Source: a phage. Taken from it: DNA of 46,134 nt. The translations under genes and the position numbers were made by a program. The stretch is from sequence record PZ379182.1, one strand, 5' to 3'. Every line of letters begins with the position of its first letter. Position 1 is the stretch's first letter. Under the pieces are notes generated by a model. The model saw only the letters and a program-made list of their open reading frames with translations. It was not told the DNA's origin and ran no database searches. Shown here one piece after another: positions 1,312 to 42,295 of the stretch.

Positions 1312-1846
1312 ATTACGTGCATTACCAAAGCAGAGGTTCCATCAATATCACCATCTACAACATGAACGTCAATTTCTCTTGCGCAGACACCGCGAATGTA
1401 GGAGCGGCTATCTCCATCAAAAGTATAGCCAGGCCTAAAAAGTCTAATCAAAGTAACTTCAACCCCTGAATCAATGAGAGTATTAATCTCGCTAGCGAAG
1501 CCACCATCAGCACAGATATAGCAACCATCACCAAGTGATTGCGCTAGCCTTTTACCGAAAACATCATCACCAAAGACTGGCTTCATAACTGACTCACTAA
1601 TCCAAATCATAAATTCACGAACCGTCATTCCACCAAGAAATTCATGTGGTGATTCTTTGTACTCTCGGTCATCGTAATTCTTAATAAATTCATCAAACTC
1701 ATCGCTTGATAGTATTCCTTTTGCAACATTAAACATTGGTGACTTGAATGAAACCTTATCCTTGCAAATTCCAAGATTAACAATGATATCTGCAACTGTA
1801 TCTTTTCCAGCACCAGGGGTGCATTAAGGATGATTAACTTTTTCAT
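1293..1846 (-). CDS. P-loop kinase, polynucleotide-kinase-like; reading frame interrupted near the 5' end
   Basis: ATG at 1846 with GGAGA RBS gives MKKLIILNA in one frame; Walker A PGAGKDT and the rest (track ORF 1293..1736) lie in another frame; the shift maps to a CCCC run. Confidence 0.6.
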
Positions 1847-1847
1847 T

Positions 1848-2322
1848 TTATTCTCCGTGAGATTCGCAGTCTTTTGGTAATTCTTTATATTCACAAACTG
1901 ACATTACAGTATATCCGCAATTCCTTAGGTGACTGATAACATTAGGATTATCCTCAAAGATTATCACACTTGCTTTGTCACCATTACACAAATCATTTAG
2001 CCACATCTCTTTAATGATATAGTCATTTGCTGTTATCCAATCTACTCCTCATATATATTCCATCATAATTAATATTATTATACTGAAGCCATTCAAGCGT
2101 CATACATTCGACTTCGTCACTTCTTGAAGTCATGATGTAAACTGGCGATAACTCAGCTAACGCATTCATCATGTTTATCATTGGAATTATCGGTGAATCT
2201 CCAGAACAGGCTCTATTGTAATCACTCCAACTTGAAGTCAAGTGAAGGTCACTAGATGGTAAGAGGTGGCTTCTATGTTCATTGTTAGCAATAGTTCCAT
2301 CAATATCAAACACGTAAATCAT
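1848..2322 (-). CDS. HAD-family phosphatase (Pnk 3'-phosphatase-like); reading frame interrupted
   Basis: Track ORF 2023..2322 has HAD motif I (FDIDGTIA) and motif II (IMTSRS); a C-terminal part with a FEDNP motif continues in another frame to a TAA just before the kinase ATG. Confidence 0.5.
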
Positions 2323-2395
2323 TACAACTCCTCATCTCGTTATCGTTTATTCATTTTGCCTCAATCCTTTGAGGCTTTATTAACAAAAAGTGCTA

Positions 2396-3529
2396 TTACT
2401 TAAACATTTCAGGTCGGCAAGTGAATCGACCAACTTCACCGTACTCTGAGCTATAGATAATTACTGAGGCCTGACGATAAGAGCGATACCCTCCGTTTGC
2501 GCTGTACGCATCTTTAGCACCCAACTGACCGTGTGACTCATCAATTCCAAGATTACCCTCAGTAACCGTCTGATGATGATAATGGCCACTATGTGTATAA
2601 ACGTATTCAGCATTACCAAATGCTTTGCGATGGTCGCGCGCAAGAGTTGAAAGACGAGTGTCAGGCTTTCGCAATTCATGACCATGGCAGTAACCCAACA
2701 ATGTTTTACCAAACTCCGTCACATGAAGAGCGGCTGGTGAGGCATCAACATTTACACGAGGCTCATCCATGTAGAAGGCAGCCATTGCAGCTCGAAGCCA
2801 AATCATCCCAGAAAGGTCGTGGTTGCCTGGTATAATCTGAACCTCAACCTCTTTATGCTTGTCAAGCATCTTACTGACTGCGCGGCGAGTTGCACGAACA
2901 GCTACGTAGACAAGTTTATGATAACGGCTATCTTGATCAAGTACGTGCTTGCTGGTTGGAGTTACAGCTTCCATTCCATCCGAGTGAAGGAAGTCTCCAC
3001 CAATCAGTAATACGGCTTTTGATGAATTCGGGGCCTTAGCAACTGCATAATCAAAGTATTGGTTAAGCACTCGCTCTGCAATTTCTGTACTGTAGTTCTC
3101 CCCACACTCTGCATGGTGAGCCATTGCGCCAATATGCATATCAAACACGGGGTAGAGGCTCAAGGTGTCCTCATAGCTTGATTCACTGAGTGGTTTCGGA
3201 GTCTCTCGAGGGAGCTCATCTGTAAGCGCCTGAACAATCTGCTGAAGCATCTCTTCTTGTTTCTGTTCGTCGATGGAAGTTTTAACCCAGCGCAGCTTCT
3301 CATTACCATCCGCATCAATCATTGTTGAAGTGCCTTTAACAAGATAGCCATCAGGAACTAGCTTCTTGATGCCTTCATTACCATGCCCAACCCCACTCTT
3401 AGCCAACTTGCTACGACGAAGCTCAACGTTTCGAATGTTCATTCCGTACTTCTCTGCAATCGCCTTGTTAGTCAGGCCGTTTTTCAGTTCTTCGATCAAC
3501 TGCTCGTTGGTAATCTTTGCTGCTGCCAT
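2396..3529 (-). CDS. calcineurin-like metallophosphoesterase with N-terminal helix-turn-helix domain
   Basis: 377 aa; motifs DMH, GDFLH, GNHD, GH, GHYHH of the metallophosphoesterase superfamily; N-terminal HTH-like segment. Confidence 0.8.
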   Translation of the reverse strand: MAAAKITNEQLIEELKNGLTNKAIAEKYGMNIRNVELRRSKLAKSGVGHGNEGIKKLVPDGYLVKGTSTMIDADGNEKLRWVKTSIDEQKQEEMLQQIVQALTDELPRETPKPLSESSYEDTLSLYPVFDMHIGAMAHHAECGENYSTEIAERVLNQYFDYAVAKAPNSSKAVLLIGGDFLHSDGMEAVTPTSKHVLDQDSRYHKLVYVAVRATRRAVSKMLDKHKEVEVQIIPGNHDLSGMIWLRAAMAAFYMDEPRVNVDASPAALHVTEFGKTLLGYCHGHELRKPDTRLSTLARDHRKAFGNAEYVYTHSGHYHHQTVTEGNLGIDESHGQLGAKDAYSANGGYRSYRQASVIIYSSEYGEVGRFTCRPEMFK

Positions 3530-3610
3530 TTTTAAGTCCTTAGTTCATCACGATAAAATATAAGATAGTAAAGCTAACCAGTGGTGCTAATGCTACTAGG
3601 GCTACGTACC

Positions 3611-3862
3611 TCATTCAACCTCTTTTAACCAGAAATCCAACAAATCAGCACTAATTGCTAATTTTTGGTCCATGTCTGTCATGCACAGATTACCGCACGC
3701 TGGAGAGTAGTAAATCTGTACCCATTTACCGTCCTTCGTCTTCGCGTTAACATCCACATAGTCAGGTGGAAACCAGTCATCAATAGGTATCGCTCTAAAC
3801 CTGGCTCCGCTACTACCATGCACTAAATCATAATGCTTTGGCTGGAAATCTAATCCAAACAT
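3611..3862 (-). CDS. hypothetical protein
   Basis: 83-aa ORF co-oriented with the leftward operon. Confidence 0.45.
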   Translation of the reverse strand: MFGLDFQPKHYDLVHGSSGARFRAIPIDDWFPPDYVDVNAKTKDGKWVQIYYSPACGNLCMTDMDQKLAISADLLDFWLKEVE

Positions 3863-3880
3863 AATTAACCCTTCGTTATC

Positions 3881-4108
3881 TTAAATTTGAATCCCTGTCT
3901 CTTTCAGGAACTCATTCGTGTTTATCGTGACGCCAGGTTTAACACTGAGATACTTGCGCGGCCTTTCATCCATGTACGTAAACTTACCGTTGAAGATGAC
4001 ACTGATATCTTTTATATCGAAGTACTTAGATATCATCTTAATGTCGTCCTGAATGCCAGCCTCTGCGCAGTGGGCCCAGACTGCGGCCCGTCCTGTTTCA
4101 ACTATCAT
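3881..4108 (-). CDS. hypothetical protein
   Basis: 75-aa ORF co-oriented with neighbours. Confidence 0.4.
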   Translation of the reverse strand: MIVETGRAAVWAHCAEAGIQDDIKMISKYFDIKDISVIFNGKFTYMDERPRKYLSVKPGVTINTNEFLKETGIQI

Positions 4109-4263
4109 AAGCCGTATGCCAATTTCAGGTATTCACGCGCACACATCCAATGACTCATTCTGATTGAAACTCAACTGCATCAACTCAGTATAAATGTTGG
4201 GCAATCCTAAACATCTCCTTATCTACGATTTTCATTATTCAAAATCCTCCGGGCAATCTTTTT

Positions 4264-4458
4264 TCATTTCCGCAATGTCTGCAACCATGCGGTCGCGCCA
4301 TGTTTCGATGTCCGTTCGCAAGTAATCTTCTTCAAAACTGTAATCAAGGCATCCAGGCTAAATCCCATAACATCACCTTTATAACCAGCATTGTGTAGCT
4401 CCTGAACCGCCATCGCCTGAAATAGTTCCCATTGTTTGTCAAATGTTAAAATTGCCAT
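4264..4458 (-). CDS. hypothetical protein; 3' part appears to continue in another frame
   Basis: 64-aa ORF; a protein-like continuation (DYSFEEDYLRTDIETWRDRMVADIAEMKKDCPEDFE) is readable in a second frame downstream to about 4190. Confidence 0.35.
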   Translation of the reverse strand: MAILTFDKQWELFQAMAVQELHNAGYKGDVMGFSLDALITVLKKITCERTSKHGATAWLQTLRK

Positions 4459-4463
4459 TACTC

Positions 4464-4658
4464 TTATACCTCATCAAATTTTTCGCCGAATTCGTTTTTA
4501 ACAGTTTCCAGATCATATCTGTAAGTTGGGCTAACTTCGAATGCATATGTGCAGTCTTCAATGTCAACCAAAACATAACCATCTTCAGTTACTTGCATCT
4601 CGTAGATGTAGCCAGTCTTGCGTGATTCGTAGAATTTACCAGTATAGATAGTAGCCAT
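4464..4658 (-). CDS. hypothetical protein
   Basis: 64-aa ORF; AGAGAGAAAG RBS region; preceded by intergenic cassette copy at 4680-4742. Confidence 0.5.
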   Translation of the reverse strand: MATIYTGKFYESRKTGYIYEMQVTEDGYVLVDIEDCTYAFEVSPTYRYDLETVKNEFGEKFDEV

Positions 4659-4679
4659 TTTCTTTCTCTCTTTGTGTGT

Positions 4680-4742
4680 TTCGTTTCGATGAGTTGATAA
4701 TACACCAACTCACCAATTCGTCTTTAGCAATTCGTGCTATTT
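4680..4742 (-). promoter_or_regulatory. intergenic cassette copy
   Basis: Minus strand AAATAGCACGAATTGCTAAAG ... TATTATCAACTCATCGAAACGAAAC then RBS. Confidence 0.6.
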
Positions 4743-5006
4743 TCTTATCATCTCTGCGAATGCCGCAAGAAAACCCTCTCTTCCATAAGCCACCGCTGCG
4801 AAACCGCCTGATTCCCTTACGCTTTTTAGGAATGACTTTTGCTCATTGCTAACTGGGCTTGCTTGCGTTTTACCAGCCCTCTTTAACTCTATGGCGCCAA
4901 ATGGATAACCGCCACGCAATGACTCAGGTATCAGAAATAAGCAGTCTGACACACCTTTGAGAAGCCCCTTGGCTTGGTCTTTCCTTGCTTGGCCAATGCT
5001 CTTCAT
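4737..5006 (-). CDS. VRR-NUC domain nuclease (PD-(D/E)xK fold)
   Basis: Track ORF 4737..5036 begins at a TTG; first ATG at about 5006; IPESLRGGYPFGAIELK resembles the VRR-NUC core. Confidence 0.6.
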   Translation of the reverse strand: MKSIGQARKDQAKGLLKGVSDCLFLIPESLRGGYPFGAIELKRAGKTQASPVSNEQKSFLKSVRESGGFAAVAYGREGFLAAFAEMIRK

Positions 5007-5159
5007 TGATTCATTAACTCGTGTGCCAATAGACAATCTGAGGGTAATTGATACTTAACCCAGTCAGAGCAAAATATTTGTTCGTCATCTTCCTTTGGGC
5101 ATGACTTTACAGGGCCGCCGTAGAACTCGAGGTAATCAATTTTGTCTGTAATTTTCATG
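4998..5159 (-). CDS. hypothetical small Cys-containing protein (about 53 aa)
   Basis: ORF read by eye (MKITDKIDYLEFYGGPVKSCPKEDDEQIFCSDW...); below track cut-off; coordinates approximate. Confidence 0.25.
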
Positions 5160-5393
5160 TTAATCCTCCATCGTGAATGATTTGTTGGCGATAATGTCTT
5201 GAGACTTCTGGTTTTTACGGTGTGTGATTCTCAATGGGGCACGGAATAGATGTGCATTTGTCATAATCATTCTAGCATTACGCAATCTGCCAATTCTGAA
5301 TGCCTCAGTCCTGTTCTCGATGTGTGTTGAGCAGAAACGCCTTCCATTTAACAGAGCAAACGCGATGGTCTGATTCAGGGAAGAATGTTTCAT
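5160..5393 (-). CDS. hypothetical basic protein
   Basis: 77-aa ORF; start overlaps helicase stop; Arg-rich, could be spurious. Confidence 0.3.
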   Translation of the reverse strand: MKHSSLNQTIAFALLNGRRFCSTHIENRTEAFRIGRLRNARMIMTNAHLFRAPLRITHRKNQKSQDIIANKSFTMED

Positions 5394-7159
5394 AAGCTCG
5401 GAATCTTATCTCCACTATGAGCCATAACCTCATATGAAGCAACAATCCCTGACTGGTTCTTTGTTAACCCAATCTTGAAGTCATAAACTCGCAACCAGTC
5501 CCCCTTACGATACATTTTTCCTGATAACTTAGCATTCGGGTCTATGAGCATCTCACCACAGCATCTGCAATTCTTAGCTGCAATATCATTCTTCTCACCG
5601 CATCCTTTCTTAATGATAGCTTTGGTCTGTGGGTCCGCTATATCTTCACACAGTCTAAACTGAAAGAAGTGCTCACAGCGCTTCCAGTCAATTACGTTAT
5701 TGCAGCGCCTGGCTAATGGAGAGTTCACATAAGAGCATACCTGACAGATTCTTGGCTCATCACCACGCTTTCTTGCTGACCTAAATTTCTGGTCTTGTAC
5801 CTCTTCTATAATTGGGTCGAAGTAAAGTTCAGCCATATCATCAAGCGTTCCAGCAAAATCAAGAACAACATGGTCATCTTTTACCATTCCAGCTTCTTTG
5901 TGCTTCTTCTTAAGGATACGCATACCACGACCAAGCAACTGAATGAGTAGAGTAATGCTACCAACCTTCCTCAGGATAATGCTTGTATCCCACGGGGGGC
6001 AGTTTACGCCAGTTGTGAGGCAACCAATCTGAAATATGAACTTATATTCTCCGTTGGCTGCTTTCTCAAGTATCTCCCTACGCTTTTTCTCACCTGTAGA
6101 GTCAGTAACTATGGCCCAAGTAACACCTTTAGGTAGCGCGCTCAGCCGCTTCAATCACAATGCTGTTTTCCAGCGCAAGTTACCAATGCAGCATTCCTTG
6201 TTTCCATAAACTTAGCAGCAAATCCCATTATCTTTTGTGTCATCGTTTGGTTTTCGTGAATCTTTGCAGCCATCGCATCCATTTCTTTCTTGCTGAAGTC
6301 CTTAACCCCATCACTTCCATCAGGAGTGAACTCACTAAGGTCGTAGCCCAAATCACCAACTTCACCGTAGACAGTAGGAACAACGAACCCCAAGTCAACA
6401 AGGTAGCTGGTTGGCACTTGCATTACAGTTTTGCGCCAGAATCCACGGACATTTGGGTTACTAACTACAATGTGGTCGTTGTTACGGTACGGGCTACCAG
6501 TTAACCCAAAGATACGAAGTTCGCGACCGTACTTCTCCTTGCATCGACGCTTCATTTCGGTAATGATTAACGTGTATTGCGCGCGACCAGTGCCAAGCAA
6601 GCCCGGTATTCACACCATCCTTAAAGACCATCTCACCCTTCTTCGTGCTCATCTGCTCGAATGTTTCCTCATTCTCTTCAGCTTCTACGATATCCATATG
6701 GTCAACCATATGACATTCATCTATCGCAATAACGGCAGGAACATAGTCACCAAGGCCCTTAAACAAGCCGTTAGCAGCTGTGCCCTCACTAGCCACTATG
6801 GTTGGGTAGTAAACTGATTTAACGTTAAGGCCAGCGCAATAGACGCTATTACGGATGCCGAAGTTACGAAGCTCTTCTGAGTTCTGGCTGATTATCTCTG
6901 ACTGGCGAGAAAGAACCATATAAGGAAGCCCAAGCTGCTCCATGCGCTTACCAATCATAGCAAGAATAATTGTCTTACCCGCAGACACCGAGAGGTCTGC
7001 GATAAATGGGGCCTCGTACTTTCCAATAGCCTTTCCGATTGCATCAAATGTCACGCACTGGAACTCGTAAGGTGTTATCTCTCCAAACTGATAATCTTTC
7101 TGAATCTGTTTAATTCTTTCTTTATCGAAATTTGCAACCAGCTTCTCGATAGGCAACAT
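5390..7159 (-). CDS. superfamily-2 DNA helicase (DEAD/DEAH-box type); reading frame interrupted twice
   Basis: Track ORFs 6494..7159 (motif I SVSAGKT, motif II DECH), 6151..6600 (LTGSPYR, motif IV-like ALVTCAGKQH) and 5390..6154 (motif V TTGVNCP, motif VI QLLGRGMR) are consecutive parts of one helicase in different frames; the two downstream track ORFs begin at TTG right after stops in their own frame. Confidence 0.7.
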
Positions 7160-7176
7160 ATCTAAATTCCTATAAA

Positions 7177-7205
7177 AATTGTCTTGTAGCGTTTAATTGA
7201 GTACA
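7177..7205 (+). promoter_or_regulatory. candidate sigma70-type promoter for rightward regulator/primase operon
   Basis: TTGTCT, 17-nt spacer, TACAAT about 55 nt upstream of the 7261 ATG. Confidence 0.35.
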
Positions 7206-7260
7206 ATACTACCATCAAATCGGAATGACTTTTAACAAAAAATGCTATTGAGGTAATGAA

Positions 7261-7743
7261 ATGAGCGCAATTGACAAGCGAACCATTAACGGTAACAACG
7301 GAACAGTCCGCACCGAAGACAAAAAGCAACGGAAACGACCTTCAGGTTACTACGTTTTAAAAGATGAAGTAAGAGCCGGACTACGCGCACGGCTTGAGAT
7401 GATCCTTGATTTCTTCGGCACAAAGGCAAATATCGCAAAGCAGTTAAAGGTGACACCTCAGGCTGTAGAAGAATGGTTTAAGCGTGGGATGATTTCTGCG
7501 CGTGGCGCTCAGTTGTCGCACAACTACTATAAGCGAAATGGAGAAGGTTTTCGCGCTACATTCTGCCGACCAGATCTGCAATTCGACGGTAACGGGAAAC
7601 CGCTAACTCTACGTTGCAAGAAGCGTCATATGCTGCGTGTTGTTACTGAGGCTGAGCTAGCAACTAAACCAGAGTGTCGCTCATGGCGCAAGATTAAGGC
7701 CGCTAACGAAGCAGCACGAAAAGATAAAGAGCAAGGGAAATAG
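7261..7743 (+). CDS. helix-turn-helix DNA-binding protein (Cro/YdaS-like putative transcriptional regulator)
   Basis: 160 aa; segment TKANIAKQLKVTPQAVEEWFKRG typical of a Cro/CI-type HTH. Confidence 0.6.
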   Translation: MSAIDKRTINGNNGTVRTEDKKQRKRPSGYYVLKDEVRAGLRARLEMILDFFGTKANIAKQLKVTPQAVEEWFKRGMISARGAQLSHNYYKRNGEGFRATFCRPDLQFDGNGKPLTLRCKKRHMLRVVTEAELATKPECRSWRKIKAANEAARKDKEQGK

Positions 7744-7808
7744 CACGAATTGATAAACAGTGGCGCTATACATTGTGTATAGTGCCTTTATTGTTTATGG
7801 AGGTAACT

Positions 7809-8735
7809 ATGAGTCACCATGATAAGAGCGAAGTGATAGCAAAAATGAAGGGAATGTGGGGCGAATTCTACTCATCGAACCTTGGATGGACAAAGGAGAA
7901 TCTCAGCAAGAAACATGGTCCGTGCCCTTACTGCTTTGGCAGGGATAGGTTTCGCTTCACTGATGAGTTAGGTCAGGAAAAGGGAAATGGCGCAGCAATA
8001 TGCAACCAGTGCGGAAATGATTCTGGTGTTGGCTGGGTTATGAAATGCTCGGGAATGAGTTATAGCGAAACAATAGATACGCTTGGTGATTGGCTGAATC
8101 TCGTTCCAGTAGAGGTTATATCAAAAGCAAACAAAAGAGCATCTCGTACATCACCATACAAAATTGGCGCCAAGATTGATCACGAAAGATGCTTAGAGAT
8201 AATGGAAAGGACGGAAAGAGTAGAATTAACTCCGCTCAGTACATACGAGGGTATCTATAGCGAATTTGGTTTTGATGTTGGCAGGACGAAATCAGGCGAA
8301 CTAATACACGCAGTACCGTGCTTTATGGCTTATAGTGACGGCATATCAGATGATATGTGCAATGTAATGTTTATCAATGAAGATGGAGATGTTAGCTATG
8401 CTGCAAAAGATTATACTCGCCAGTCTGTTTCTATTATTGGCACCTTTAAAGATGATGAGTACGCTTATCTGGTCGATAATTGGATTGATGGTGTTCGCGT
8501 TCATCTTGCTACTGGAAATCGCTGCGTGCTTGTTTGCCACTCCAGCTACAACATGGAAATGGTTGCTTATGCGCTTAGGAACTACAAGTTACGCGTCGCT
8601 TGTACTCGCAACTCTTTTGATTTACTTGCCGTTGCTGACGATCGCAATCTTGATATTGTAATTCCAAATGATGGTAATTTTTTCAAGTCAGGCATAAGAA
8701 AGAGAATATACAAGGCAAACGAATTACTAGACTAA
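7809..8735 (+). CDS. DNA primase (zinc-ribbon plus Toprim-like domain)
   Basis: Track ORF 7773..8735; ATG at 7809 preceded by GGAGG; zinc-binding CPYCFGRDRF...CNQCG followed by primase-like core. Confidence 0.7.
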   Translation: MSHHDKSEVIAKMKGMWGEFYSSNLGWTKENLSKKHGPCPYCFGRDRFRFTDELGQEKGNGAAICNQCGNDSGVGWVMKCSGMSYSETIDTLGDWLNLVPVEVISKANKRASRTSPYKIGAKIDHERCLEIMERTERVELTPLSTYEGIYSEFGFDVGRTKSGELIHAVPCFMAYSDGISDDMCNVMFINEDGDVSYAAKDYTRQSVSIIGTFKDDEYAYLVDNWIDGVRVHLATGNRCVLVCHSSYNMEMVAYALRNYKLRVACTRNSFDLLAVADDRNLDIVIPNDGNFFKSGIRKRIYKANELLD

Positions 8736-8756
8736 CCTCCTTCGGGAGGTTTTTTT
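8736..8756 (+). terminator. intrinsic terminator
   Basis: CCTCC-TTCG-GGAGG hairpin followed by TTTTTTT right after the primase stop. Confidence 0.75.
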
Positions 8757-8822
8757 ATACCTGAAAGATGATACAATCCACTTTAGCAATTAGTGCTACT
8801 TTACAAATGGAGACTTTACACA

Positions 8823-11351
8823 ATGGCAATTTATGACTTAGGAACAGCGTCGCTAGCCGCAAATGGCGAGGTTACTGGCGTCGGGACAACATGGAAAGCA
8901 CCACTTACACTTATTCGTGTAGGTGCAACCATTATTTTTAAAACCAGTCCACTTAAAATTTATACCATCTCTGAAATCATCAGCGACACTCAGATTAATG
9001 TTTACAACCCTAATTCTGAAACTGTTCCTGCCGGAACTGGTTACGCGATTCTTGCTCACGATGGCATTACCGTTCAGGGTTTAGCTCAGGATGTTGCTGA
9101 GACTCTGCGTTACTATCAGTCAAAGGAGACTTCTATTGAAAGTTTGCTGCAATTTATCGGGCAAGATAATTTCGATTGGCCTCGCTTCGAGCAATTAGCA
9201 AACCAATCAGTAACAGGGGCTGCCGAGTCTTTAGCTAGCCAGATTGCTGCCGCAGAGAGCGCCGCTACTGCCGTTAGCGCAAGGGATACAACCACATCAG
9301 CGAGAGATGCTACTATTGAGGCAATTAATAGTGCTGGTGATGCTGGCACAATGGTAACTCTTGCCAATATGGGTATCGGTGGCTCGCTTACACCTCAGTT
9401 GACAGAACTTGACTGGAATACGTTTGATTTCAAATCAGGAGCTAGATACCTATGCCAAAAGTCAGCAATGATCAACGCTCCAGAGGTGATAAATATAACC
9501 TACTCCGATAGCACGCTTTGTGCGATTGAGGTTAAGTCAGCAAGGGGGATTACTGGTGTTAAGAACATACAAGTGTCAGCATCAACCGGATCCGATAATA
9601 CGTACAGGTTGATTGATTTAACTCAGACTGGCACGGCACCAAACAAAACTTACTATTCAAGAGAGGCTCTTTATGTCGCATCAGGAAGTCAGGTTGGCGG
9701 CGCTAGCGCCCAGCGAGTAAGAGGCTTGCTTGATGTTTACTCAAAAAATGAGACTTTTCAAAAATCATTGAATTTATCTGATGTTGCAGATAAAGCAAAA
9801 GCAAGAACCAACCTTGATGTTTACTCAAAGAGCGAATTATCATCAATTTTAAATACAGATTCAAAAAGCACATCAAGCTATAGCGGCTCAATATCTTCAG
9901 CAATAGAAGCCGCTGGCGATGGCGGGTCGGTAGTTATAAGCCCGGGAACTTATGAGAGTAATAACTACTCCTTTGCTGGCAGGAACATATCAGGCTCTGG
10001 ATATAATACCGTAATAAGTGTTAAACCTTTTGAAACCGGACTCACCTCAACGCTATCGGTTCCGCACTGGAGGCAAAAGCATTTATCGGATTTGCAGTTT
10101 ACAGGTACTGCAATACAAGGTAATAACGGCTTTCAATTCCCGGATGACCCTTATGCTGGAAGGGTTGTATTGGATAGGCTTTACTTCAATGACCTGGATG
10201 TTGGTATAAGGAAAAATGCTGGCAACATTGGAAATACCTACAGAAACGTAAGTATTAGAAATGCGAATTACGGGTATCGAGCAAAAGCTCATGACGAAAT
10301 GCATATAGGAGCGGACACTTTATACGGATACCACTCAGATACAATCTCTCAATATTCAGTAATGCTAGATGCGACAAGCACAAGTAGCGCAACGAACCCT
10401 GGCGCTGGAGGAATTGGTGGGTGGTGGATTAGGGATTCAATAATGGAGGCCTCTGCTGGCGGCGGTATAAGGTTAAAGAATAAACCTGGAGATTGCCCAA
10501 CATCACCTTGCGGATTGTCTAACGTATGGTTTGAAGCGATAGCAACTGGTGGGGCAATTAACGTAGGTGAGGGAGCTGAACTCCCAAGGGTTTTGAAGCT
10601 CATCGATACGTCCGTTTTCTTTGCTGAGCATTCTTATATTAATAACATTGAGTTATCAAATTCAAACCTTGTAACTTATGGGTGCAGGTTTGATAACGCT
10701 GATGGGCACCAAAGTTTCTCTCTTGATTCGAACAGTATTATTTTTGCTAAGGATGCATACCTGAATGGCTCTTCAACATCAAACGTTATAGTTGAGTCAC
10801 TGGTATCACAGACAGCCAAGATAACGGGTACATCTGACTTATCTGTTAGAGGATATGTTACTAAAGGTCGAGTTTTTAACCCTGATTCCGGAACTGTTTT
10901 AGTAAGGAGGCCTTTTGGTACTGGTGGGAACAACTTTGGTGGAACAGGGTCGGCAAGTGAAGGTTCTGATACAAGGGGTATACACTCGCAATCATCTGGA
11001 TACTACGAATTGGCTGGTGCGGCTCAGTACGAATTGATAAATGGTGGCTTTAATATAACTTCCGGCAAATGGTATGCTTGGGGTATTTCTGCAAACAGGA
11101 TTCAAGGCGGTGCTGATGGTATTATAAACATTTTTGGTAGCGCATCATTAGGAACTGTATTCACAGAAGCTGGTAAGTGGGTTCATACATTTGGCGTTGG
11201 TAAGGCTTCGGTTTCTGGCGTTGCAAACCTTAACATTAACCTCAATGGATTAACTGGTATGGTATTAAGCCTTGCTGATTATTTTGTTGTAGAATTTGAT
11301 AATCAAAGGGACGCCTTGATATTTGCAAACTCAAGAGTTTCTCTTGCATAA
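8823..11351 (+). CDS. tail fiber / tailspike protein with candidate enzymatic central domain
   Basis: Track ORF 8793..11351; ATG at 8823 (MAIYDLGTASLAANGEVTG...); Gly/Ser/Thr/Asn-rich repetitive beta-type sequence typical of fibers; enzymatic domain is inferred, not shown. Confidence 0.65.
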   Translation: MAIYDLGTASLAANGEVTGVGTTWKAPLTLIRVGATIIFKTSPLKIYTISEIISDTQINVYNPNSETVPAGTGYAILAHDGITVQGLAQDVAETLRYYQSKETSIESLLQFIGQDNFDWPRFEQLANQSVTGAAESLASQIAAAESAATAVSARDTTTSARDATIEAINSAGDAGTMVTLANMGIGGSLTPQLTELDWNTFDFKSGARYLCQKSAMINAPEVINITYSDSTLCAIEVKSARGITGVKNIQVSASTGSDNTYRLIDLTQTGTAPNKTYYSREALYVASGSQVGGASAQRVRGLLDVYSKNETFQKSLNLSDVADKAKARTNLDVYSKSELSSILNTDSKSTSSYSGSISSAIEAAGDGGSVVISPGTYESNNYSFAGRNISGSGYNTVISVKPFETGLTSTLSVPHWRQKHLSDLQFTGTAIQGNNGFQFPDDPYAGRVVLDRLYFNDLDVGIRKNAGNIGNTYRNVSIRNANYGYRAKAHDEMHIGADTLYGYHSDTISQYSVMLDATSTSSATNPGAGGIGGWWIRDSIMEASAGGGIRLKNKPGDCPTSPCGLSNVWFEAIATGGAINVGEGAELPRVLKLIDTSVFFAEHSYINNIELSNSNLVTYGCRFDNADGHQSFSLDSNSIIFAKDAYLNGSSTSNVIVESLVSQTAKITGTSDLSVRGYVTKGRVFNPDSGTVLVRRPFGTGGNNFGGTGSASEGSDTRGIHSQSSGYYELAGAAQYELINGGFNITSGKWYAWGISANRIQGGADGIINIFGSASLGTVFTEAGKWVHTFGVGKASVSGVANLNINLNGLTGMVLSLADYFVVEFDNQRDALIFANSRVSLA

Positions 11352-11380
11352 AAAAAGCCCCGAAAGGGGCTTTATCTTTT
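11352..11380. terminator. bidirectional intrinsic terminator between convergent tail fiber and SSB genes
   Basis: AAAAAAAGCCCCGAAAGGGGCTTTATCTTTT; hairpin flanked by A-run and T-run. Confidence 0.75.
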
Positions 11381-11381
11381 A

Positions 11382-11837: not shown

Positions 11838-11877
11838 TTTCTTTCTCTCTTAATGTTGGGGCCGCAGCCCCGTTAAA

Positions 11878-12528: not shown

Positions 12529-12539
12529 TAACTATCTCT

Positions 12540-12606
12540 CTTTCGTTTCAGTGGGGAAATCATACCTCACCTTTTGATTTTGTCTTTAGCAATTAGTGCT
12601 ATTTTA
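12540..12606 (-). promoter_or_regulatory. intergenic cassette copy between exonuclease and ERF genes
   Basis: Minus strand AAATAGCACTAATTGCTAAAG ... CCCCACTGAAACGAAAGAGAG; motif contains the exonuclease stop codon. Confidence 0.6.
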
Positions 12607-13570: not shown

Positions 13571-13573
13571 GGC

Positions 13574-13768: not shown

Positions 13769-13900
13769 TTCTCTATCTCTCTATTGTTGTTTGCTTTCGA
13801 TGCGTTAATGATGCCGCACGCAAGACACACAGTCCAATTGGTATCACCGATTAATTAATCAAGTATACGCGTATAAATCCGTAACTATGTGTAGACATTG

Positions 13901-14155: not shown

Positions 14156-14309
14156 TCAAAGCGTAACTAGGCGTATACGATTTCCCGCTGATGCATATGG
14201 TATACATAGAGTTACATCGGTTACGCGTAACCAACAGCACGAATAGCTAAAACTAATCCGCAAAACCATGTATAGTTGGTCACACAAAAAAACGAGAGAG
14301 GATTTCAAA

Positions 14310-36716: not shown

Positions 36717-36905
36717 TTACTTTCGCTCACGAACGTAAGCTACTAGGAATTTGTGGTAATCCGGGTCGGCACCAGACATTACCTTAACTTTCGCTACTGC
36801 TTCCTCTGAGGACTTAGCAGTAACCGACGCGATAAATTCTTGAGTGCAACTTTTGCAACTACGACCCATTAATCGGATTGAAAGCTTAACATCCCAGAGC
36901 TGCAT
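36717..36905 (-). CDS. hypothetical protein (possibly the C-terminal part of the 36886..37098 gene)
   Basis: 62-aa ORF; one fewer A in the AAAAAA run would fuse both ORFs into about 131 aa. Confidence 0.4.
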   Translation of the reverse strand: MQLWDVKLSIRLMGRSCKSCTQEFIASVTAKSSEEAVAKVKVMSGADPDYHKFLVAYVRERK

Positions 36906-37098
36906 TTTTTATCTTCCCGCTCTGATTGCTATAGTTTTGAGTTTCTCTTTCAAGCTCGAGATAACATTTAATATCCGCGCTAACTGAAACCCCGCCAATC
37001 ACACCCTTTAAGCATTTATGTTCACGGTCAAGTGTTGCGTTGAATTTTTGGGAAGTGCCGCTTTCAATATCTTTTACGATGATTGTTACTTTTTTCAT
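36886..37098 (-). CDS. hypothetical protein
   Basis: 70-aa ORF; overlaps the next ORF by 20 nt across an A6 run. Confidence 0.4.
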   Translation of the reverse strand: MKKVTIIVKDIESGTSQKFNATLDREHKCLKGVIGGVSVSADIKCYLELERETQNYSNQSGKIKNAALGC

Positions 37099-37129: not shown

Positions 37130-37205
37130 TGGTGTTCCGCACTGGACTCGAACCAGTAACTAAGACTTAGGAGGTCTTTGCGTTATCCTGTTACGCCAGC
37201 AGAAC
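37130..37205 (-). tRNA. tRNA-Arg (anticodon CCU, reads AGG)
   Basis: 76 nt folded by eye: acceptor GTTCTGC/GCGGAAC (one G-U), D-arm GCGT/ACGC, anticodon stem AAGAC/GTCTT with loop CUCCUAA, T-arm ACTGG-TTCGAGT-CCAGT, encoded CCA. Confidence 0.8.
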
Positions 37206-37591: not shown

Positions 37592-38390
37592 CAAAACTCC
37601 TCAGTTATAAGCATCTTGCCACAATCTTTGCACTCGTAGAATGCACATGCTTTCACCAACTAATAGACTTGGTTTTGTTGACTCGTGGTACTTGCATCGT
37701 TTAGCGCTTTAATGTCAAAATCGTTAATGATTTGATGTGAACACGTAAACGTAGCGATGCTTGTGATTGATTTCTTTATTATTCATAAAGGCTATTCCCA
37801 TTCTGATCATGGCCTACGCGACATTTTCTATAACCAGCAATCCACACAAATTTGTCTCGAGCAATTAGTGTCGAAACCGGCCCCCACACTTGAGTAATCA
37901 GCGCTGCCACTACCTTATCATCTTTCTTCTTTGCGCCCAAGTTTGCCGTATTCGTCATTCAGCTTATCAGCCTGTCGCTTGACTGCGTTAAAGTATGCGT
38001 CGTCTAATCCGAACATTATTCATCATCCTCCTCGCATGCTATGAGACTATCGCAATTATCACGGCATCGCAAATGCCTTTGGTGCTTTAGCTATTCGTGG
38101 CTGTAAATCAAGTCAGCAATGACTTAACAAATTCGATCTGGAGTAACCATCTCATTCGCTTCGTATGGCTCTATGCAATCTCTTCGTTGTATGAATGAGT
38201 TGAACGTTATCATGGCAAATCCGATGCGCTGTCATGCAATTACGCAATTCGTGCGTATGCCATTTCTTATCTTCACGCTCTTTCCATAGATTTCAGTTAG
38301 CTCGTAAGTACATTCATGGCATCTTCGCCAGTCTTAGCCTCATCCATGCATCCGTGCAGGCCCACTGGCTTGGTGTTTCGTAGTTATCCA

Positions 38391-38516
38391 TTAGTAAACA
38401 AGAGCCTCGTGGTTTGCTATGTAAAGCTCCTCATCGTGCTTGTTTTTAATGAAGTACCCATTGCCATCTTCGCTAGGCTCTGCATAGAATACGTCGCCAT
38501 GCTTTAAGCGCGCCAT
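38391..38516 (-). CDS. hypothetical small protein (41 aa)
   Basis: Read by eye: GGTGAGGA RBS then MARLKHGDVFYAEPSEDGNGYFIKNKHDEELYIANHEALVY; below track cut-off. Confidence 0.3.
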   Translation of the reverse strand: MARLKHGDVFYAEPSEDGNGYFIKNKHDEELYIANHEALVY

Positions 38517-38571
38517 ATAATCATCCTCACCAATGATATACGATCTTAATCATGCAATCACCTCACTTAAA

Positions 38572-38706
38572 TTATAGTTCGTTAGAATCGCTTTTAGCGT
38601 CATCTACGGCTGCTGAAATCATGTAAATAATCATGAAGCCCAATGACCAGAGTAACCATGGCAATGCTTCAACCAGAAATTCACCCATCATTAACCCAGT
38701 ATGCAT
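38572..38706 (-). CDS. small membrane protein (about 44 aa)
   Basis: Track ORF 38572..38760; internal ATG at about 38706 follows GAGGAT; one hydrophobic helix LVEALPWLLWSLGFMIIYMI. Confidence 0.4.
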   Translation of the reverse strand: MHTGLMMGEFLVEALPWLLWSLGFMIIYMISAAVDDAKSDSNEL

Positions 38707-38716
38707 TTCTCTATCC

Positions 38717-39139
38717 TCAGATTTTGTTAATTTGCTCAAACTTCTCAAACCAGAAAACAACTGGATCCTCCACTATGGAGATGAGGCCGAACCGCTCTGC
38801 CGTGCGAAAATTCATGCTGCTCTTACGCCCGCGAGCTACTTGAAGAGACACCTGTTCCCTGAACATTTCAAGGGAATAGCAAGTTTTCATGAGGTTGCAT
38901 GGAGCACATGCAGGGTAAAGGTTTTCCATTCGATCAGCTTGTGGTCGATTAAACTCACCTGTCGCCTTCAGCTTGAAAGTTCCTTTCTCCGCTGCCTTCA
39001 TGCATACCTCAGATTTACGTAGCACCGGTTCAACATGGTCAGCATGCCAGCCTTTCTCAGGTAGTTCACACCCACAATAAGCGCAGCGACCACCGAACTT
39101 GCCCTTCAACTCTTCCCTTTGAGATTTGCTTAATTTCAT
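38717..39139 (-). CDS. HNH endonuclease (zinc-ribbon type)
   Basis: 140 aa; CAYCGC...H..H...CAPCN motif arrangement. Confidence 0.8.
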   Translation of the reverse strand: MKLSKSQREELKGKFGGRCAYCGCELPEKGWHADHVEPVLRKSEVCMKAAEKGTFKLKATGEFNRPQADRMENLYPACAPCNLMKTCYSLEMFREQVSLQVARGRKSSMNFRTAERFGLISIVEDPVVFWFEKFEQINKI

Positions 39140-39149
39140 TTTATAAACC

Positions 39150-39329
39150 TTAAATTTTATTCAATTGATCAAGAATCTCGAAAGCCAGTTCTCGAGCTTG
39201 CTCTTCATTTAAGTGGATAGTATGAACCTTAGGTTCATCATGCAAACCGAAAGCCTGGGCGATGATAAATGTTGTGTAACCATCGAAGTTGTTAGCCTGG
39301 AGCTTAGGGTTACTTTGCTGTAATTTCAT
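39150..39329 (-). CDS. hypothetical protein (about 59 aa)
   Basis: ORF read by eye (MKLQQSNPKLQANNFDGYTTFIIAQAFGLHDEPK...); start overlaps upstream stop. Confidence 0.35.
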   Translation of the reverse strand: MKLQQSNPKLQANNFDGYTTFIIAQAFGLHDEPKVHTIHLNEEQARELAFEILDQLNKI

Positions 39330-39544
39330 TCTTCGACCACCTTGTACTCGCCTTCTTCAAAACTAACCATCTGTCCTATTGATACTAACTCAGTATCACG
39401 AATCGCTCGAGCTGATAAGCTACCACACCCGAACCGACCGGTTACTTCTAATACGTCACCAACTCTTAAACCCGCATGTGCTTCAAGCTGTCAGAACGCC
39501 TTACTTCTGGTATGTAGTTCACGTCGATGAATTTTAATTTTCAT
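39326..39544 (-). CDS. hypothetical protein with an in-frame TGA at codon 18
   Basis: MKIKIHRRELHTRSKAF-TGA-QLEAHAGLRVGDVLEVTGRFGCGSLSARAIRDTELVSIGQMVSFEEGEYKVVEE read in one frame; coordinates approximate. Confidence 0.3.
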
Positions 39545-39770
39545 ATCTATACTCCATCTCGTTGTCGATGTGGTAATTATGCCGGATTTCTCCGGCAATT
39601 GTTTATGCAATGTCATGCTATTCACCGAGTTTCATCACGAAGAACATAACACTCAACACCTCTTCAAGAACGTCCAGCTGAGATTTCGCATCATTCGTAA
39701 TACTCATAAGCTCGAATATGCTTAACGCTGTTGAATTTTCCTGTATAGCTCATGTCCTGAACGTAATAAA

Positions 39771-40004
39771 TCATTTCTTTGTCGCCTTATCCCAGTTAGT
39801 GAGGTAGCCAGCATTCTGGATGCTTAGAGCTTCGTACTGGCGAGATGACTCGAAGTCTGATACGTCGAACTGCTGGTTGTTGATTTGTGCGCCAGTCTCT
39901 TTTACGACACGCATCTGCTCAAAGGTCAGCGTTGAATGCATTTGCTTCATGATGATTGATTTAAGGATTGCTGCATCTTTCTCTGACAGGTTAATTGTAA
40001 TCAT
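39771..40004 (-). CDS. hypothetical protein
   Basis: 77-aa ORF in the leftward early series. Confidence 0.45.
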   Translation of the reverse strand: MITINLSEKDAAILKSIIMKQMHSTLTFEQMRVVKETGAQINNQQFDVSDFESSRQYEALSIQNAGYLTNWDKATKK

Positions 40005-40234
40005 TTCGTTTGTTCCAGGTAAGTTTTCATCTTGTTCAGTGAGTCTATTGCGTCATCAAGGTCTGTAATTACGTCCTTGTGGCCTCGTAAACCCATGCAT
40101 AGAAGCTTTTTGATTGCATGCTGACACGCCGGGTCTGTAACGTTGAACGCTGATAGCGTGCGATACACATCAACAATAGCACGCTCGCCATTAAGCCCGA
40201 TAATCTCTCTTTCATATTTGCTCCTTTCCATCAC
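40001..40234 (-). CDS. hypothetical protein
   Basis: 77-aa ORF; stop/start overlap with the downstream gene. Confidence 0.45.
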   Translation of the reverse strand: MMERSKYEREIIGLNGERAIVDVYRTLSAFNVTDPACQHAIKKLLCMGLRGHKDVITDLDDAIDSLNKMKTYLEQTK

Positions 40235-40307
40235 ATCCTCTTTTGCTTTGCTTCAATAAGGCCACTATATCAAATGGCCTTGCGGAAGGTTTAGCAATTC
40301 GTGCTAT

Positions 40308-40493
40308 TCAAAACTTAACATCAATTATGACTTCAACCATCTCCTGCCCAAGCCGGTAGGAGTCGCCCCAAAGAAGTAGTCCCATAAACTCATCCTTACT
40401 AAAAGTGTTGGCATTTACAGTTCTAAGATAGCCACGATGGATAACAGTATCGCCAATCTTAACTTCGCTCTTATGTACCATTTTAGTTTTCAT
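40308..40493 (-). CDS. hypothetical protein
   Basis: 61-aa ORF; stop immediately precedes a cassette motif copy. Confidence 0.45.
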   Translation of the reverse strand: MKTKMVHKSEVKIGDTVIHRGYLRTVNANTFSKDEFMGLLLWGDSYRLGQEMVEVIIDVKF

Positions 40494-40548
40494 GCTGTTT
40501 CTCCAGTTGTCTTATTGAGGCACCCCGCGAGATGCCTTGTAAGATAAC

Positions 40549-40737
40549 TCAGTAGCAGGTAGCCAGGAAGTCGGCGATACCTTTTGAGGTTGCTTCCGGC
40601 ATACTACGTACTGCAACATCGTAACCAGCCTCAACCTTTGCAATCGCTGACTCTTCGTTGTATCCGAACATTGTCAGGATGGTGATTACGTTTTCTTTAT
40701 TCAGGACTTTAAGTTCTTTAGTGATGCGCTTAGCCAT
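40549..40737 (-). CDS. hypothetical protein
   Basis: Track ORF 40549..40809; ATG at about 40737 follows AAGGA and lies downstream of cassette copy 40745-40821. Confidence 0.45.
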   Translation of the reverse strand: MAKRITKELKVLNKENVITILTMFGYNEESAIAKVEAGYDVAVRSMPEATSKGIADFLATCY

Positions 40738-40744
40738 TTTCGTT

Positions 40745-40821
40745 TTCCTTTGTGCCTCTCGTTTCGATGAGATAATTATGCCATCCATGGCATTATATGC
40801 GTTAGGCAAAAAGTGCTATTT
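40745..40821 (-). promoter_or_regulatory. intergenic cassette copy
   Basis: Minus strand AAATAGCACTTTTTGCCTAA, TGCCATGGATGGCA hairpin, CATAATTATCTCATCGAAACGAGAGG. Confidence 0.55.
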
Positions 40822-40926
40822 CCATTCAGTAGTAATTTAGCTTTCCGATATAAATCCATAGCCACCCCAACCTCATCCTCATCCTCACTGTACCGCGGAT
40901 GGTATGGTAGTAGACTACCATACCCA

Positions 40927-41448
40927 CTATTTAGTCTCCTTAATCATTTCTTGGTATGCGTTAATCATTGATACTGCACCCTTAAGTTCATCACCTTCAA
41001 GACCAGCGACGCTTGGTGATAGTTTCAACAATCGAGCCTTGAACCTTTCAATGGTAGCCGCCTCCTTCTCTTGCTCTGCTTTGCTTCTTGAGCCGGATTT
41101 TACAGCGCCAGGAACCAGGCTAAGTGATGCGCAGTATGTCTCACTCTCGCCCTCAAAGTCGGTAAAACTAAGTGAGAACCTTGAGCGCACGTCAGCCGCC
41201 TTAATCTCAGGCATTCGGCTTACGGTGTTTGAAACGTATGACGCTTTTAGTTTTGGCATGTGGTATTCACCACCAGGTAGAAACTCCTCACCACTTAGCG
41301 ATACGAACGTCTCACGACTCATGCCGAAGTATTGACGAGCAATCATGGTCACAGGGACTGTGCACACTTTGTCTTCTGACTTGAGCGCCTGACTCGCCAT
41401 GTATCGAATGATTTCACCCAAACTTACTGCTTCTTTATGTTCTGACAT
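40927..41448 (-). CDS. hypothetical protein, first gene of the long leftward operon
   Basis: 173-aa ORF; AGGAG RBS 8 nt before the ATG. Confidence 0.55.
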   Translation of the reverse strand: MSEHKEAVSLGEIIRYMASQALKSEDKVCTVPVTMIARQYFGMSRETFVSLSGEEFLPGGEYHMPKLKASYVSNTVSRMPEIKAADVRSRFSLSFTDFEGESETYCASLSLVPGAVKSGSRSKAEQEKEAATIERFKARLLKLSPSVAGLEGDELKGAVSMINAYQEMIKETK

Positions 41449-41545
41449 ATTCGTTACTCCTGATTGGTTGCTCTTCGTTAAGATGAAACCATGGTATCAT
41501 GAATATACGCGTTATCAAGTGTTATGTTGTGTTTATATCTGCATT

Positions 41546-41785
41546 GGTTACGCTTTTTGACCTCTCAGCCCAGCTATAGCTGGTGTAATTACCCTGTGTA
41601 AGATTTTACGCGGATTCGCCGGGGGTATGCATATGTATCTATATAGATAAAATTAGTAGTTTTCATAGAAAAACTATCGACCCATCCATACGACCAATCT
41701 ACACCATATACATACATATATATAATAATAATAATAATATAGTAAAAGGTTGATATATATAGATATTATTATGTAACCATTGCGT
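41546..41785. repeat. AT-rich regulatory/origin-like module, copy 2
   Basis: GTTACGCTTTTTGACC, perfect 14-bp palindrome CCAGCTATAGCTGG at 41570-41583, (ATA/TAA)n at 41715-41740, core GGTTGATATATATAGATATTATTATGTAAC at 41748-41777. Confidence 0.7.
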
Positions 41786-42295
41786 AATCTAGCGTGGTAG
41801 GCGTGTATGATTCTTCGGAAGCGCACCTCATATACACACCATAACTTCGATAACGTGTATATCCAAATTGGCTCAGCAAGAATCAAAATCAACTTGTATG
41901 GTAGTCCATCCACCATTCATTCACCCCACATCGATCATTGCAAATTCTGCAACAATCAAAAACATCATTGCATTCGATGCAATATTGCTATATGTGCAAT
42001 AATGAGATGAATCATTGCAATAGCTGCAACAATCTATAAATCCAACGAATAGCACTTTTTGCTAATGCACAATCATTAGTAAGTTGCTACTATGTATTCA
42101 TCGAAACGGTGCTGGACTCTGAGTCACTTCCGAAAGGAACCAAAAGAGTGAACGACACCGCGCAATGTGAGGAAGCGTTACCTTACCCACCAAAGCGCCT
42201 TGCGGGTCCTTTTGATAGGATGCCGGGCCGGGTTTAAAATCCCGAGTTGTAGTGAGTACGTTGAAGAGATTTCGATAACAAGAAAACATAGAGAG

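Follow-up and report, generated by a model that had tools for sequence, protein, structure and literature searches.

Rtp-like coliphages (Rtp, TR1-3, CY1, AN_ECEAS, ES and many metagenome or Logan contigs) share an early/replication module of constant gene order, in which the genes of 664, 139, 73, 41, 80, 83, 377-378, 157 and 184 aa are unbroken in about 25 relatives. Apparent frameshifts are also known from genome assembly. In the phased assembly of Trypanosoma brucei, nearby allelic variants misalign reads and give indel errors in the collapsed consensus, which appear as frameshifts (PMC8445201), and the Kastor paper deals with assembly errors that fragment genes (PMC12007338). The DNA analysed here (the window) is the 46,134-nucleotide stretch of record PZ379182.1, a complete, circularly permuted genome of an Rtp-like coliphage (Drexlerviridae, Braunvirinae). 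Its early genes have the order found in the relatives and, once extra bases are removed, also the lengths (664, 139, 73, 41, 80, 83, 377, 157 and 184 aa); breaks within them occur in the window alone.

Searches of phage collections with the window gave top matches of 88-94% identity, and Rtp itself (46,219 bp; L010) is about 82% identical to it in the helicase/early region. The main comparison used AN_ECEAS, TR3, L020 (Logan ERR4228857; 97.7% identity to the window over 18 kb), L029 (97.6% across 37648..42068) and L039 (up to 99.8% local identity), combining gap lists, window-private columns in MAFFT alignments and ORF repair. About 50 events were found in total, 48 insertions of one or two bases and 2 deletions, and every one of them is located within 1816-6601 or 37648-42068, in both coding and non-coding DNA (Table 1). 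The extra bases are private to the window and non-templated. They are grouped in bursts and spare neither coding nor non-coding DNA, and every gene is whole again once they are taken out. Judged from these sequence comparisons, the frame breaks very probably stem from spurious bases introduced at the assembly or consensus stage and not from mutations of a functioning phage.

Table 1. Error tracts, affected genes and non-coding sites, and unbroken features of the window.
Feature	Position	Strand	Observation
Error tract B	1816..6601 (~4.8 kb)		16 private +1 insertions, one -1 deletion; gap lists vs AN_ECEAS, TR3, L020, L039; MAFFT; ORF repair
P-loop protein gene, 184 aa	1293..1846	-	-1 at 1820 in G run (G5 to G4)
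HAD_PNKP-type phosphatase gene, 157 aa	1851..2322	-	+1 G at 2029; Pfam PF25109
377-aa gene (1.1 kb)	2396..3529		Unbroken, inside tract B
80-aa early gene	3865..4108	-	+1 at 3897; 99.2% nucleotide identity to L039 apart from the extra base
41-aa early gene	4108..4235	-	Five single-base insertions: 4196, 4187, 4184, 4155, 4150
73-aa early gene	4235..4458	-	+1 at ~4368 and ~4352; repaired: 94.6% aa identity to L039, no stops
VRR-NUC nuclease gene (139 aa in relatives)	4737..5158	-	+1 at ~5049-5051 and 5018-5020; Pfam VRR_NUC after repair
SF2 helicase gene	5160..7159	-	2000 nt vs exactly 1995 nt (664 aa) in 11 relatives
Overlapping gene pair	36717..37098	-	Unbroken; 70 aa + 62 aa, 20-nt overlap
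Error tract A	37648..42068 (~4.4 kb)		~33 events, nearly all +1/+2 insertions; small early genes and intergenic DNA
Further non-coding insertions	37650, 37691-2, 37731, 40797, 42068		
78-aa early gene	37779..38016	-	+1 at ~37939-37941
Intergenic/promoter stretch	38018..38104		Up to 10 insertion events (15 extra bases) vs AN_ECEAS and L029
46-aa gene	38266..38391	-	Six +1 insertions: 38293, 38296, 38305, 38314, 38348, 38360
53-aa gene	38391..38553	-	+1 at ~38535; repaired: 100% aa identity to L029
70-aa gene	39326..39544	-	Insertions at 39529, 39503, 39488, 39479-80 (two bases), 39464
Conserved non-coding element	39600..39615		Two +1 (39606, 39612); five relatives identical here, without both bases
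~50-aa gene	39618..39774	-	+1 at 39693, -1 at 39666, +1 at 39629

A sequence-only reading of the window had reported that disruptions cluster in early/replication genes. Their distribution is indeed non-uniform, none of 37 curated sites being in the 24 kb late block (P ~1.6e-12), but the clustering tracks physical position and not gene function. Nine of the 37 sites are non-coding, and the primase, DUF3987, Erf and exonuclease genes, which are early/replication genes outside the tracts, are unbroken together with the tiny hypothetical genes at 42.4-44 kb. L029 aligns to the window with 32 gaps over tract A (97.6% identity) and with 0 gaps over the adjoining 42456-44719 (99.25%). The structural, packaging and lysis genes are unbroken, as had been read, and give single stop-free matches, with no frame-changing indels against 96-99% identical relatives. 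Outside the tracts, natural indels either keep the frame or fall in intergenic runs. An ORF of 93 aa in TR3, which meets five stops in the window when aligned to 13.9-14.2 kb, suggested a real pseudogene there, and this was rejected; the ORF is not conserved as such, and the DNA, which is outside the tracts, is conserved and non-coding, 492 nt of it aligning to AN_ECEAS without gaps. The tRNA-Arg(CCT) at 37130..37205 is undamaged and is situated outside both tracts, for which reason tRNA damage was dropped as an error marker. The window also has a private 162-nt segment (38105-38266) with no match among phages or E. coli genomes.

The helicase gene is broken, at five positions and not at the two seen earlier: comparison with relatives gives private +1 insertions at 6598, 6156, 6140, 5404 and 5334. 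Deletion of the extra bases shortens the gene from 2000 to 1995 nt and yields 664 codons with zero stops, and the repaired protein has 98.3% aa identity to L020 and a Helicase_C domain (Pfam PF00271, E=4e-9). All seven insertions of the helicase and VRR-NUC genes are missing from L020. The same helicase gene is also interrupted, and annotated in pieces, in the ES and AN_ECEAS phages, where an insert of ~1.1 kb with a LAGLIDADG endonuclease match and a weak intein-splicing match represents a natural mobile element; the window lacks this intein-type insert and has single-base frame breaks instead.

Relaxed selection on accessory early genes had been offered as one reason for the clustering. Pseudogenisation of this kind would fit the confinement of the breaks to early-region DNA and the small, accessory nature of several affected genes, but the helicase bears no trace of it. 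Each fragment past a break is still under strong purifying selection in its ancestral frame. The gene's dN/dS is 0.056 overall against AN_ECEAS, and the two largest fragments past the first break have values of 0.05 and 0.009; 60 differences from L020 are distributed over codon positions as 6/5/49, and the third-position bias is kept downstream of every break. Substitution-generated stops are absent after repair, deletions are almost absent, and no break is common to relatives. The conserved replicative helicase is struck five times whereas the tiny 42.4-44 kb genes and the primase, DUF3987, Erf and exonuclease genes are spared, and like insertions are present in conserved non-coding DNA inside the tracts. 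We regard pseudogenisation as exceedingly improbable.

In the remainder of tract B and at its edge, the genes for the HAD_PNKP and P-loop proteins are 99.8% identical to L039, with one indel apiece as the exception. These are the frames that had been called 'kinase' and 'phosphatase', respectively. Both are broken but the identities do not hold, since Pfam assigns a HAD_PNKP phosphatase domain to the first and the second is a P-loop protein. Repair of the first gives a 157-aa ORF with 99.8% nucleotide and 100% aa identity to L039, and repair of the second, also at 99.8% nucleotide identity, gives 184 aa. The small gene noted before at 4264..4458 (4235..4458 in Table 1) is disrupted relative to unbroken orthologues. 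Five broken genes come in addition to those listed earlier, namely the VRR-NUC, 41-aa and 80-aa genes and, in tract A, the 46-aa (38266..38391) and 53-aa (38391..38553) genes. The insertion at 3897 alters and shortens the C-terminus of the 80-aa product. Exact insertion positions in the 41-aa gene are less certain because its nucleotide identity is lower (0.85).

Tract A contains two further small genes that had been suspected of breaks (near 37800-38040 and at about 39600-39770), and both are disrupted compared with their unbroken orthologues (37779..38016 and 39618..39774). An in-frame TGA reported near 39491 was confirmed; it sits in the out-of-frame stretch of the 70-aa gene (39326..39544), in which the net change is +6 and the frame is therefore regained. 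The repaired product is 97.2% identical to that of L029. The pair at 36717..37098, in contrast, had been taken for a single frame broken at an A6 run and turned out to be two natural genes that overlap, as they do in all relatives. It is present at 99.5-100% nucleotide identity in AN_ECEAS, ES and at least five metagenome or Logan contigs, has the same identity to L029 with no indels, and its 62-aa product occurs on 19 public contigs.

The comparison with orthologues that the sequence-only reading had proposed showed the events to be private to the window, about 25 relatives being unbroken at conserved length. L020, L029 and L039, near-identical independent assemblies (97-99.8% identity), are free of every event in the regions compared, L029 of all tract A insertions. 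Identical breaks were sought in the relatives, none of which shares any. Nine truncated ORF products were absent among ~15 billion public proteins, in collections that do not hold the window's own record, and patterns spanning sites 6598 and 2029 exactly, with the base in question optional, had no match in viral and metagenome contigs. Most window proteins are absent in exact-protein look-ups. Once the private bases are removed, all ORFs are restored, free of internal stops and at 86-100% aa identity.

Programmed frameshifts are known from the tail chaperone genes of phages, and ribosomal frameshifting or transcriptional slippage might restore the present frames at expression. No specific support was found for such recoding. 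At none of the sites is an orthologue interrupted in the ~25 relatives, each being a single ORF, and the ~50 sites, many of them non-coding, have heterogeneous and mutually unrelated sequence contexts. The chance of programmed recoding is close to nil.

The makeup of the events bears on the nature of the error. Compared with AN_ECEAS, the window has 36 insertions and 6 deletions; five control genome pairs had 0-9 indels in each direction, and none showed the window's insertion excess. The sequence-only reading had placed most breaks at homopolymers and attributed them to sequencing chemistry. Site 1820 (G5 to G4) fits homopolymer-length miscalls of the 454, Ion Torrent or nanopore type and is the only classic run-length event. 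Among 34 single-base insertions, 8 equal a flanking base, mostly in runs of only 2, and the other 26 are unlike both neighbours. With 48 insertions to 2 deletions, the balance is the reverse of that of homopolymer errors, which are rich in deletions; long runs elsewhere (such as A7 at 21868 and 11357) vary no more than is usual for intergenic DNA, and chemistry errors would be expected genome-wide rather than in two tracts. Homopolymer miscalls are very unlikely to be the cause. The evidence strongly favours the earlier suspicion of an artefact of sequencing or assembly, but not the homopolymer chemistry given as its reason.

Insertions also occur in bursts. Twelve adjacent pairs are ≤20 nt apart where 2.8 are expected (P<5e-5), and one burst, in the 46-aa gene, packs six insertions into 70 nt and brings no substitutions with it. 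These features bear on a further possibility, in which the frameshifts are real and very recent and the window is a defective, cheater or satellite-like genome that a close relative infecting the same cell complements in trans with its replication proteins. Two closely related Rtp-like phages would then be mixed, one with the helicase, nuclease and small early genes inactivated and the virion and lysis genes kept. The virion and lysis genes are all unbroken, the allele-doubling pattern described below hints at a mixed population, and a very recent origin would account for the missing signal of relaxed selection. Non-templated +1 insertions, however, are not a natural mutational spectrum, and six of them in 70 nt without substitutions are implausible as such; non-coding DNA is equally affected, the events are confined to the tracts and not to dispensable genes, and the truncated products occur in no public assembly. 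We consider a defective genome very unlikely.

With a consensus or assembly artefact as the preferred explanation, the two tracts would be blocks of lower-accuracy consensus, and the cause a tract-specific consensus problem. In several places the two alleles of a polymorphism seen among close relatives stand side by side, one as the inserted base and the other as its neighbour, which hints at a collapsed two-variant mixture. Such allele doubling was found at 5 of 18 testable sites (0.62 expected; P ~3e-4), mainly in tract B (4/8, against 1/10 in tract A), and, with a broad panel of relatives, at 8 of 10 sites (4.75 expected; P=0.026). A hand count for transition bias between inserted base and neighbour gave no signal (13/27, ~12 expected). 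The extra bases may have come from two variants, as in a mixed lysate or a metagenome, that were assembled together and collapsed into one consensus, an origin that we rate at somewhat below even; the alternative would be poorly polished gap-filling or long-read sequence. Generic low-quality base-calling was rejected as the full story, as window-private substitutions are not raised in the tracts (32/kb, compared with 53/kb outside), and the error process must therefore be almost insertion-only. It also counts against the artefact that it does not by itself explain the placement in exactly two tracts, and that the 1.1 kb gene at 2396..3529 is unbroken inside tract B.

No new biology follows from the breaks, and the consequence is one of annotation and curation. 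If left uncorrected, the genome gives about 13 false pseudogenes or split genes in annotation, including a seemingly dead replicative helicase, and would seed databases with truncated proteins; the repaired coordinates permit correction. The ratio of insertions to deletions, templating, bursts, codon-position spectra downstream of breaks and near-twins in Logan or metagenome data together provide tests of artefact versus decay that work without reads. The tandem two-allele pattern may also mark sequences assembled from mixed phage stocks.

Compared with known systems, the window resembles true phage and bacterial pseudogenes in its fragmented ORFs opposite unbroken orthologues. True pseudogenes, however, carry deletions, substitution-generated stops and non-synonymous changes, often shared by relatives, a pattern not seen in the window. 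The closer likeness is to draft, long-read or collapsed-allele assemblies (PMC12007338, PMC8445201), in which spurious indels likewise give apparent frameshifts and premature stops, are exposed by close relatives and leave restored ORFs on removal. The collapsed-allele indels (PMC8445201) match the tandem two-allele pattern at window sites. The window differs from the errors described in both papers in that nearly all of its events are insertions, that they do not sit at homopolymers, and that they are contained in two tracts of ~4.5-4.8 kb of a 46 kb genome.

All annotated proteins of the related coliphages TR3 and AN_ECEAS were run by tblastn against the window. Each virion, packaging and lysis protein gave a single stop-free match, which agrees with the sequence-only reading that the structural, packaging and lysis genes are intact. 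A second set of proteins gave matches in several frames or with stops (Table); the disruptions are therefore real in the window sequence, and they outnumber those that this reading had listed. One listed break, at 36717..37098, was included wrongly, the site being an ordinary overlapping pair of 70-aa and 62-aa genes with no indels in AN_ECEAS, the related phage ES or several independent contigs. The helicase gene is 2000 nt long in the window versus exactly 1995 nt in 11 relatives, and alignment with the relatives assigned the excess to five window-private single-base insertions. The names in circulation for two neighbouring genes are swapped or loose: that annotated as 'polynucleotide kinase' (1851-2322) has the HAD_PNKP phosphatase domain only, and the 'ATPase' or 'phosphatase' (1293-1846) has a P-loop (GAGKD) and zero Pfam match.

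Table. Coordinates and character of features in the window
Feature	Coordinates	Observation
Helicase		Several tblastn matches in different frames or with stops
VRR-NUC nuclease		Several tblastn matches in different frames or with stops
73-, 41-, 80-aa genes downstream of VRR-NUC nuclease		Multi-frame tblastn matches or stops
157-aa HAD_PNKP phosphatase-domain gene ('kinase' in the sequence-only reading)	1851-2322	Multi-frame tblastn matches or stops
184-aa P-loop gene ('phosphatase' in that reading)	1293-1846	Multi-frame tblastn matches or stops
78-, 46-, 53-, 70-, ~50-aa genes	37.8-39.8 kb	Multi-frame tblastn matches or stops
Tract B	1816-6601	
Tract A	37648-42068	
Burst	38293-38360	Six events in 70 nt
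Burst	39464-39529	Five events (six bases) in 66 nt
Burst, intergenic DNA	38018-38104	Up to ten events in 87 nt
Non-coding sites inside tracts	39606, 39612	In element identical in five relatives
Further non-coding sites inside tracts	37650, 37691, 37731, 40797, 42068	
Window-private segment, 162 nt	38105-38266	Between 46-aa and 78-aa genes; ~5 nt there in relatives; stops in every minus-strand frame
Conserved AT-rich non-coding region, ~490 nt	13769-14260	91.7% to AN_ECEAS, gap-free; repeated GTTAC/GTAAC and GTATAC, (TTA)n/(TA)n core
HNH_3 homing-endonuclease gene	25337-25822 (+)	Opposite strand, inside tail module, adjoins tape-measure gene
u-spanin gene	1-237 and 45988-46134	Runs off position 1, resumes at 46134

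Alignment with relatives showed the events to be overwhelmingly +1 insertions in the window; of a curated total of ~50, 48 are insertions. Against AN_ECEAS the window has 36 insertions and 6 deletions, an insertion excess seen in none of five control genome pairs (0-9 each way). Most breaks had been placed at homopolymers, which does not hold: the inserted base is unlike both flanking bases in 26 of the 34 single-base insertions, and the only classic run-length change is at 1820 (G5 to G4). Adjacent events no more than 20 nt apart number 12 pairs, versus 2.8 expected if events were spread uniformly over the tracts. In nature, +1 events arise mostly by slippage that duplicates a base in a run; non-templated +1 insertions in bursts are unlike this natural mutational spectrum.

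All events lie in two physical tracts. The 24 kb late block contains zero of the 37 curated sites (P ~1.6e-12, uniform model); the corresponding value for all sites lying inside the two tracts (P ~1e-14, uniform over non-late DNA) is post hoc, since the data themselves had set the tract limits. Outside the tracts, the Cro-like regulator, primase, SSB-like gene, Erf, exonuclease, DUF3987 and the small genes at 42.4-44 kb are intact. L029, an ENA metagenome contig, matches 42456-44719 at 99.25% identity with zero gaps, versus 32 gaps in the adjoining tract. Where the window and close relatives differ by indels outside the tracts, these preserve the frame (3, 6, 12 or 18 nt) or sit within intergenic runs, and a 492-nt non-coding region there aligned to AN_ECEAS without gaps. 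The event pattern tracks position, not function. The clustering in early and replication genes that had been proposed is non-random, but it resolves into positional tracts that include non-coding DNA and leave other early and replication genes intact. The AT-rich region at 13769-14260 may be an origin or have a regulatory role; AN_ECEAS has a second, 69%-identical copy (~38691-38935) in its other divergent-promoter region, and TR3 is annotated at the equivalent place with a 93-aa ORF that is not conserved as an ORF.

Independent near-twins of the window were intact at these sites. L020 (Logan assembly of ERR4228857; 97.7% identity to window 4545-22528) has none of the seven helicase and VRR-NUC insertions, and L029 (97.6% identity over tract A) is without every tract A insertion. 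The related sequence L039 is 99.8% identical over the HAD_PNKP and P-loop genes, with one indel per gene as essentially the sole difference; after repair the products are 100% and 99.5% identical in amino acids. The affected genes are intact and of conserved length in all ~25 relatives, and zero of nine truncated window ORF products were found among ~15 billion public proteins, in which intact window proteins were found. Identical breaks in independent isolates had been proposed as the mark of real biology; since near-twins and relatives are intact and the truncated products absent, no such recurrence was seen. Relative to the window and AN_ECEAS, L029 has one extra C at window 40151, near the 5' end of 40001..40234, giving a 71-aa product versus the 76/77-aa gene; the indel probably belongs to L029 rather than to the window. 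In another related record, L012 (IMGVR_UViG_2974610512, 50.8 kb), the helicase at 10001-12119 was matched twice, in different frames and with overlapping query ranges (1-388 and 346-664), which may represent a frameshift or duplication in that record as well.

Repair, in which private bases were deleted and one G was added at 1820, restored every ORF with zero internal stops and 86-100% amino acid identity to the nearest orthologue. The repaired helicase had a dN/dS of 0.056 against AN_ECEAS, its two largest fragments downstream of the first break 0.05 and 0.009, and intact-helicase control pairs 0.035-0.069. Third codon positions hold 49 of the 60 nucleotide differences from L020 (48 of 59 downstream of the first break). 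Relaxed selection, which had been offered as one explanation, is contradicted by this dN/dS, the persistent third-position bias and the lack of stops after repair. Pseudogene decay of the helicase is likewise ruled out, as five independent insertions with unrelaxed constraint and zero substitution-generated stops are incompatible with it. It is highly improbable that the genome is truly defective and is complemented by a relative infecting the same cell. With the repair applied, the region has the usual content of a Braunvirinae early and replication module: an SF2 helicase with Helicase_C, VRR_NUC, HAD_PNKP, the P-loop protein and small genes of hypothetical products.

The extra bases are most likely spurious and located in two blocks of lower-accuracy consensus. 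Sequencing or assembly error, also raised by the sequence-only reading, is strongly supported by the private insertions, the intact near-twins and the ORF-restoring repair. Window-private substitutions are not raised within the tracts, and the error process is therefore nearly insertion-only, which speaks against ordinary poor base-calling. In comparison with close relatives, many tract B insertions resemble both alleles of a polymorphism in tandem. At 5338, L039 has GAGCAGAAA-GCC, AN_ECEAS GAGCA-AAACGCC and the window GAGCAGAAACGCC; at 4352, AN_ECEAS GCAT and L039 GCAC correspond to window GCATC; at 3897, alleles G and T to GT; at 6598, window CTTG combines CTT and TTG; and at 4156 the window is a common supersequence of the alleles of TR3 and the related L015. 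Allele doubling fitted 5 of 18 sites with close relatives only (0.62 expected, P ~3e-4) and 8 of 10 with a broad panel (4.75 expected, P=0.026). Collapse of two co-assembled variants into one consensus would write alleles in tandem, and such errors would arise only where the variants differ moderately, which would explain the confinement to two tracts. This origin falls somewhat short of probable, because only 1 of 10 testable tract A sites showed doubling and a hand count revealed no transition bias at insertion sites. Alternatively, the bases could come from unpolished gap-filling or long-read sequence, for which gene-fragmenting errors have been described (PMC12007338). Judged by these sequence comparisons, the frame breaks are an artefact of the record, not a biological feature, and the finding is relevant to curation only.

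Other elements were observed alongside. The helicases of AN_ECEAS and ES (L004 26012-29146 and L005 30372-33506) carry a ~1.1 kb insert after about residue 155, corresponding to window ~6695-6748, where the window has none. The insert, with a LAGLIDADG endonuclease match (E=6e-7) and a weak intein-splicing match, is probably an intein; in both records it is annotated under separate gene names ('hypothetical', 'minor tail' or 'ssDNA-binding'). The private segment at 38105-38266 had zero matches in phage and E. coli collections; it may derive from a small gene garbled by the insertion errors, or else from foreign DNA or misassembly. HNH genes of relatives lie elsewhere than that of the window (beside terL, between primase and regulator, or beside the major tail gene), and these differing positions suggest that mobile endonuclease genes move about within the group.

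Each end of the window carries part of the u-spanin gene; the window is therefore a complete, circularly permuted genome of 46,134 bp whose start point is arbitrary. The phage is an Rtp-like E. coli siphovirus (Drexlerviridae, Braunvirinae). Among deposited phages, AN_ECEAS and ES come nearest (88-97% nucleotide identity), with TR1-3 and CY1 next. Much closer relatives than these were obtained by look-up of exact window proteins in public assemblies. Phage Rtp itself has a distinct and more distant genome.
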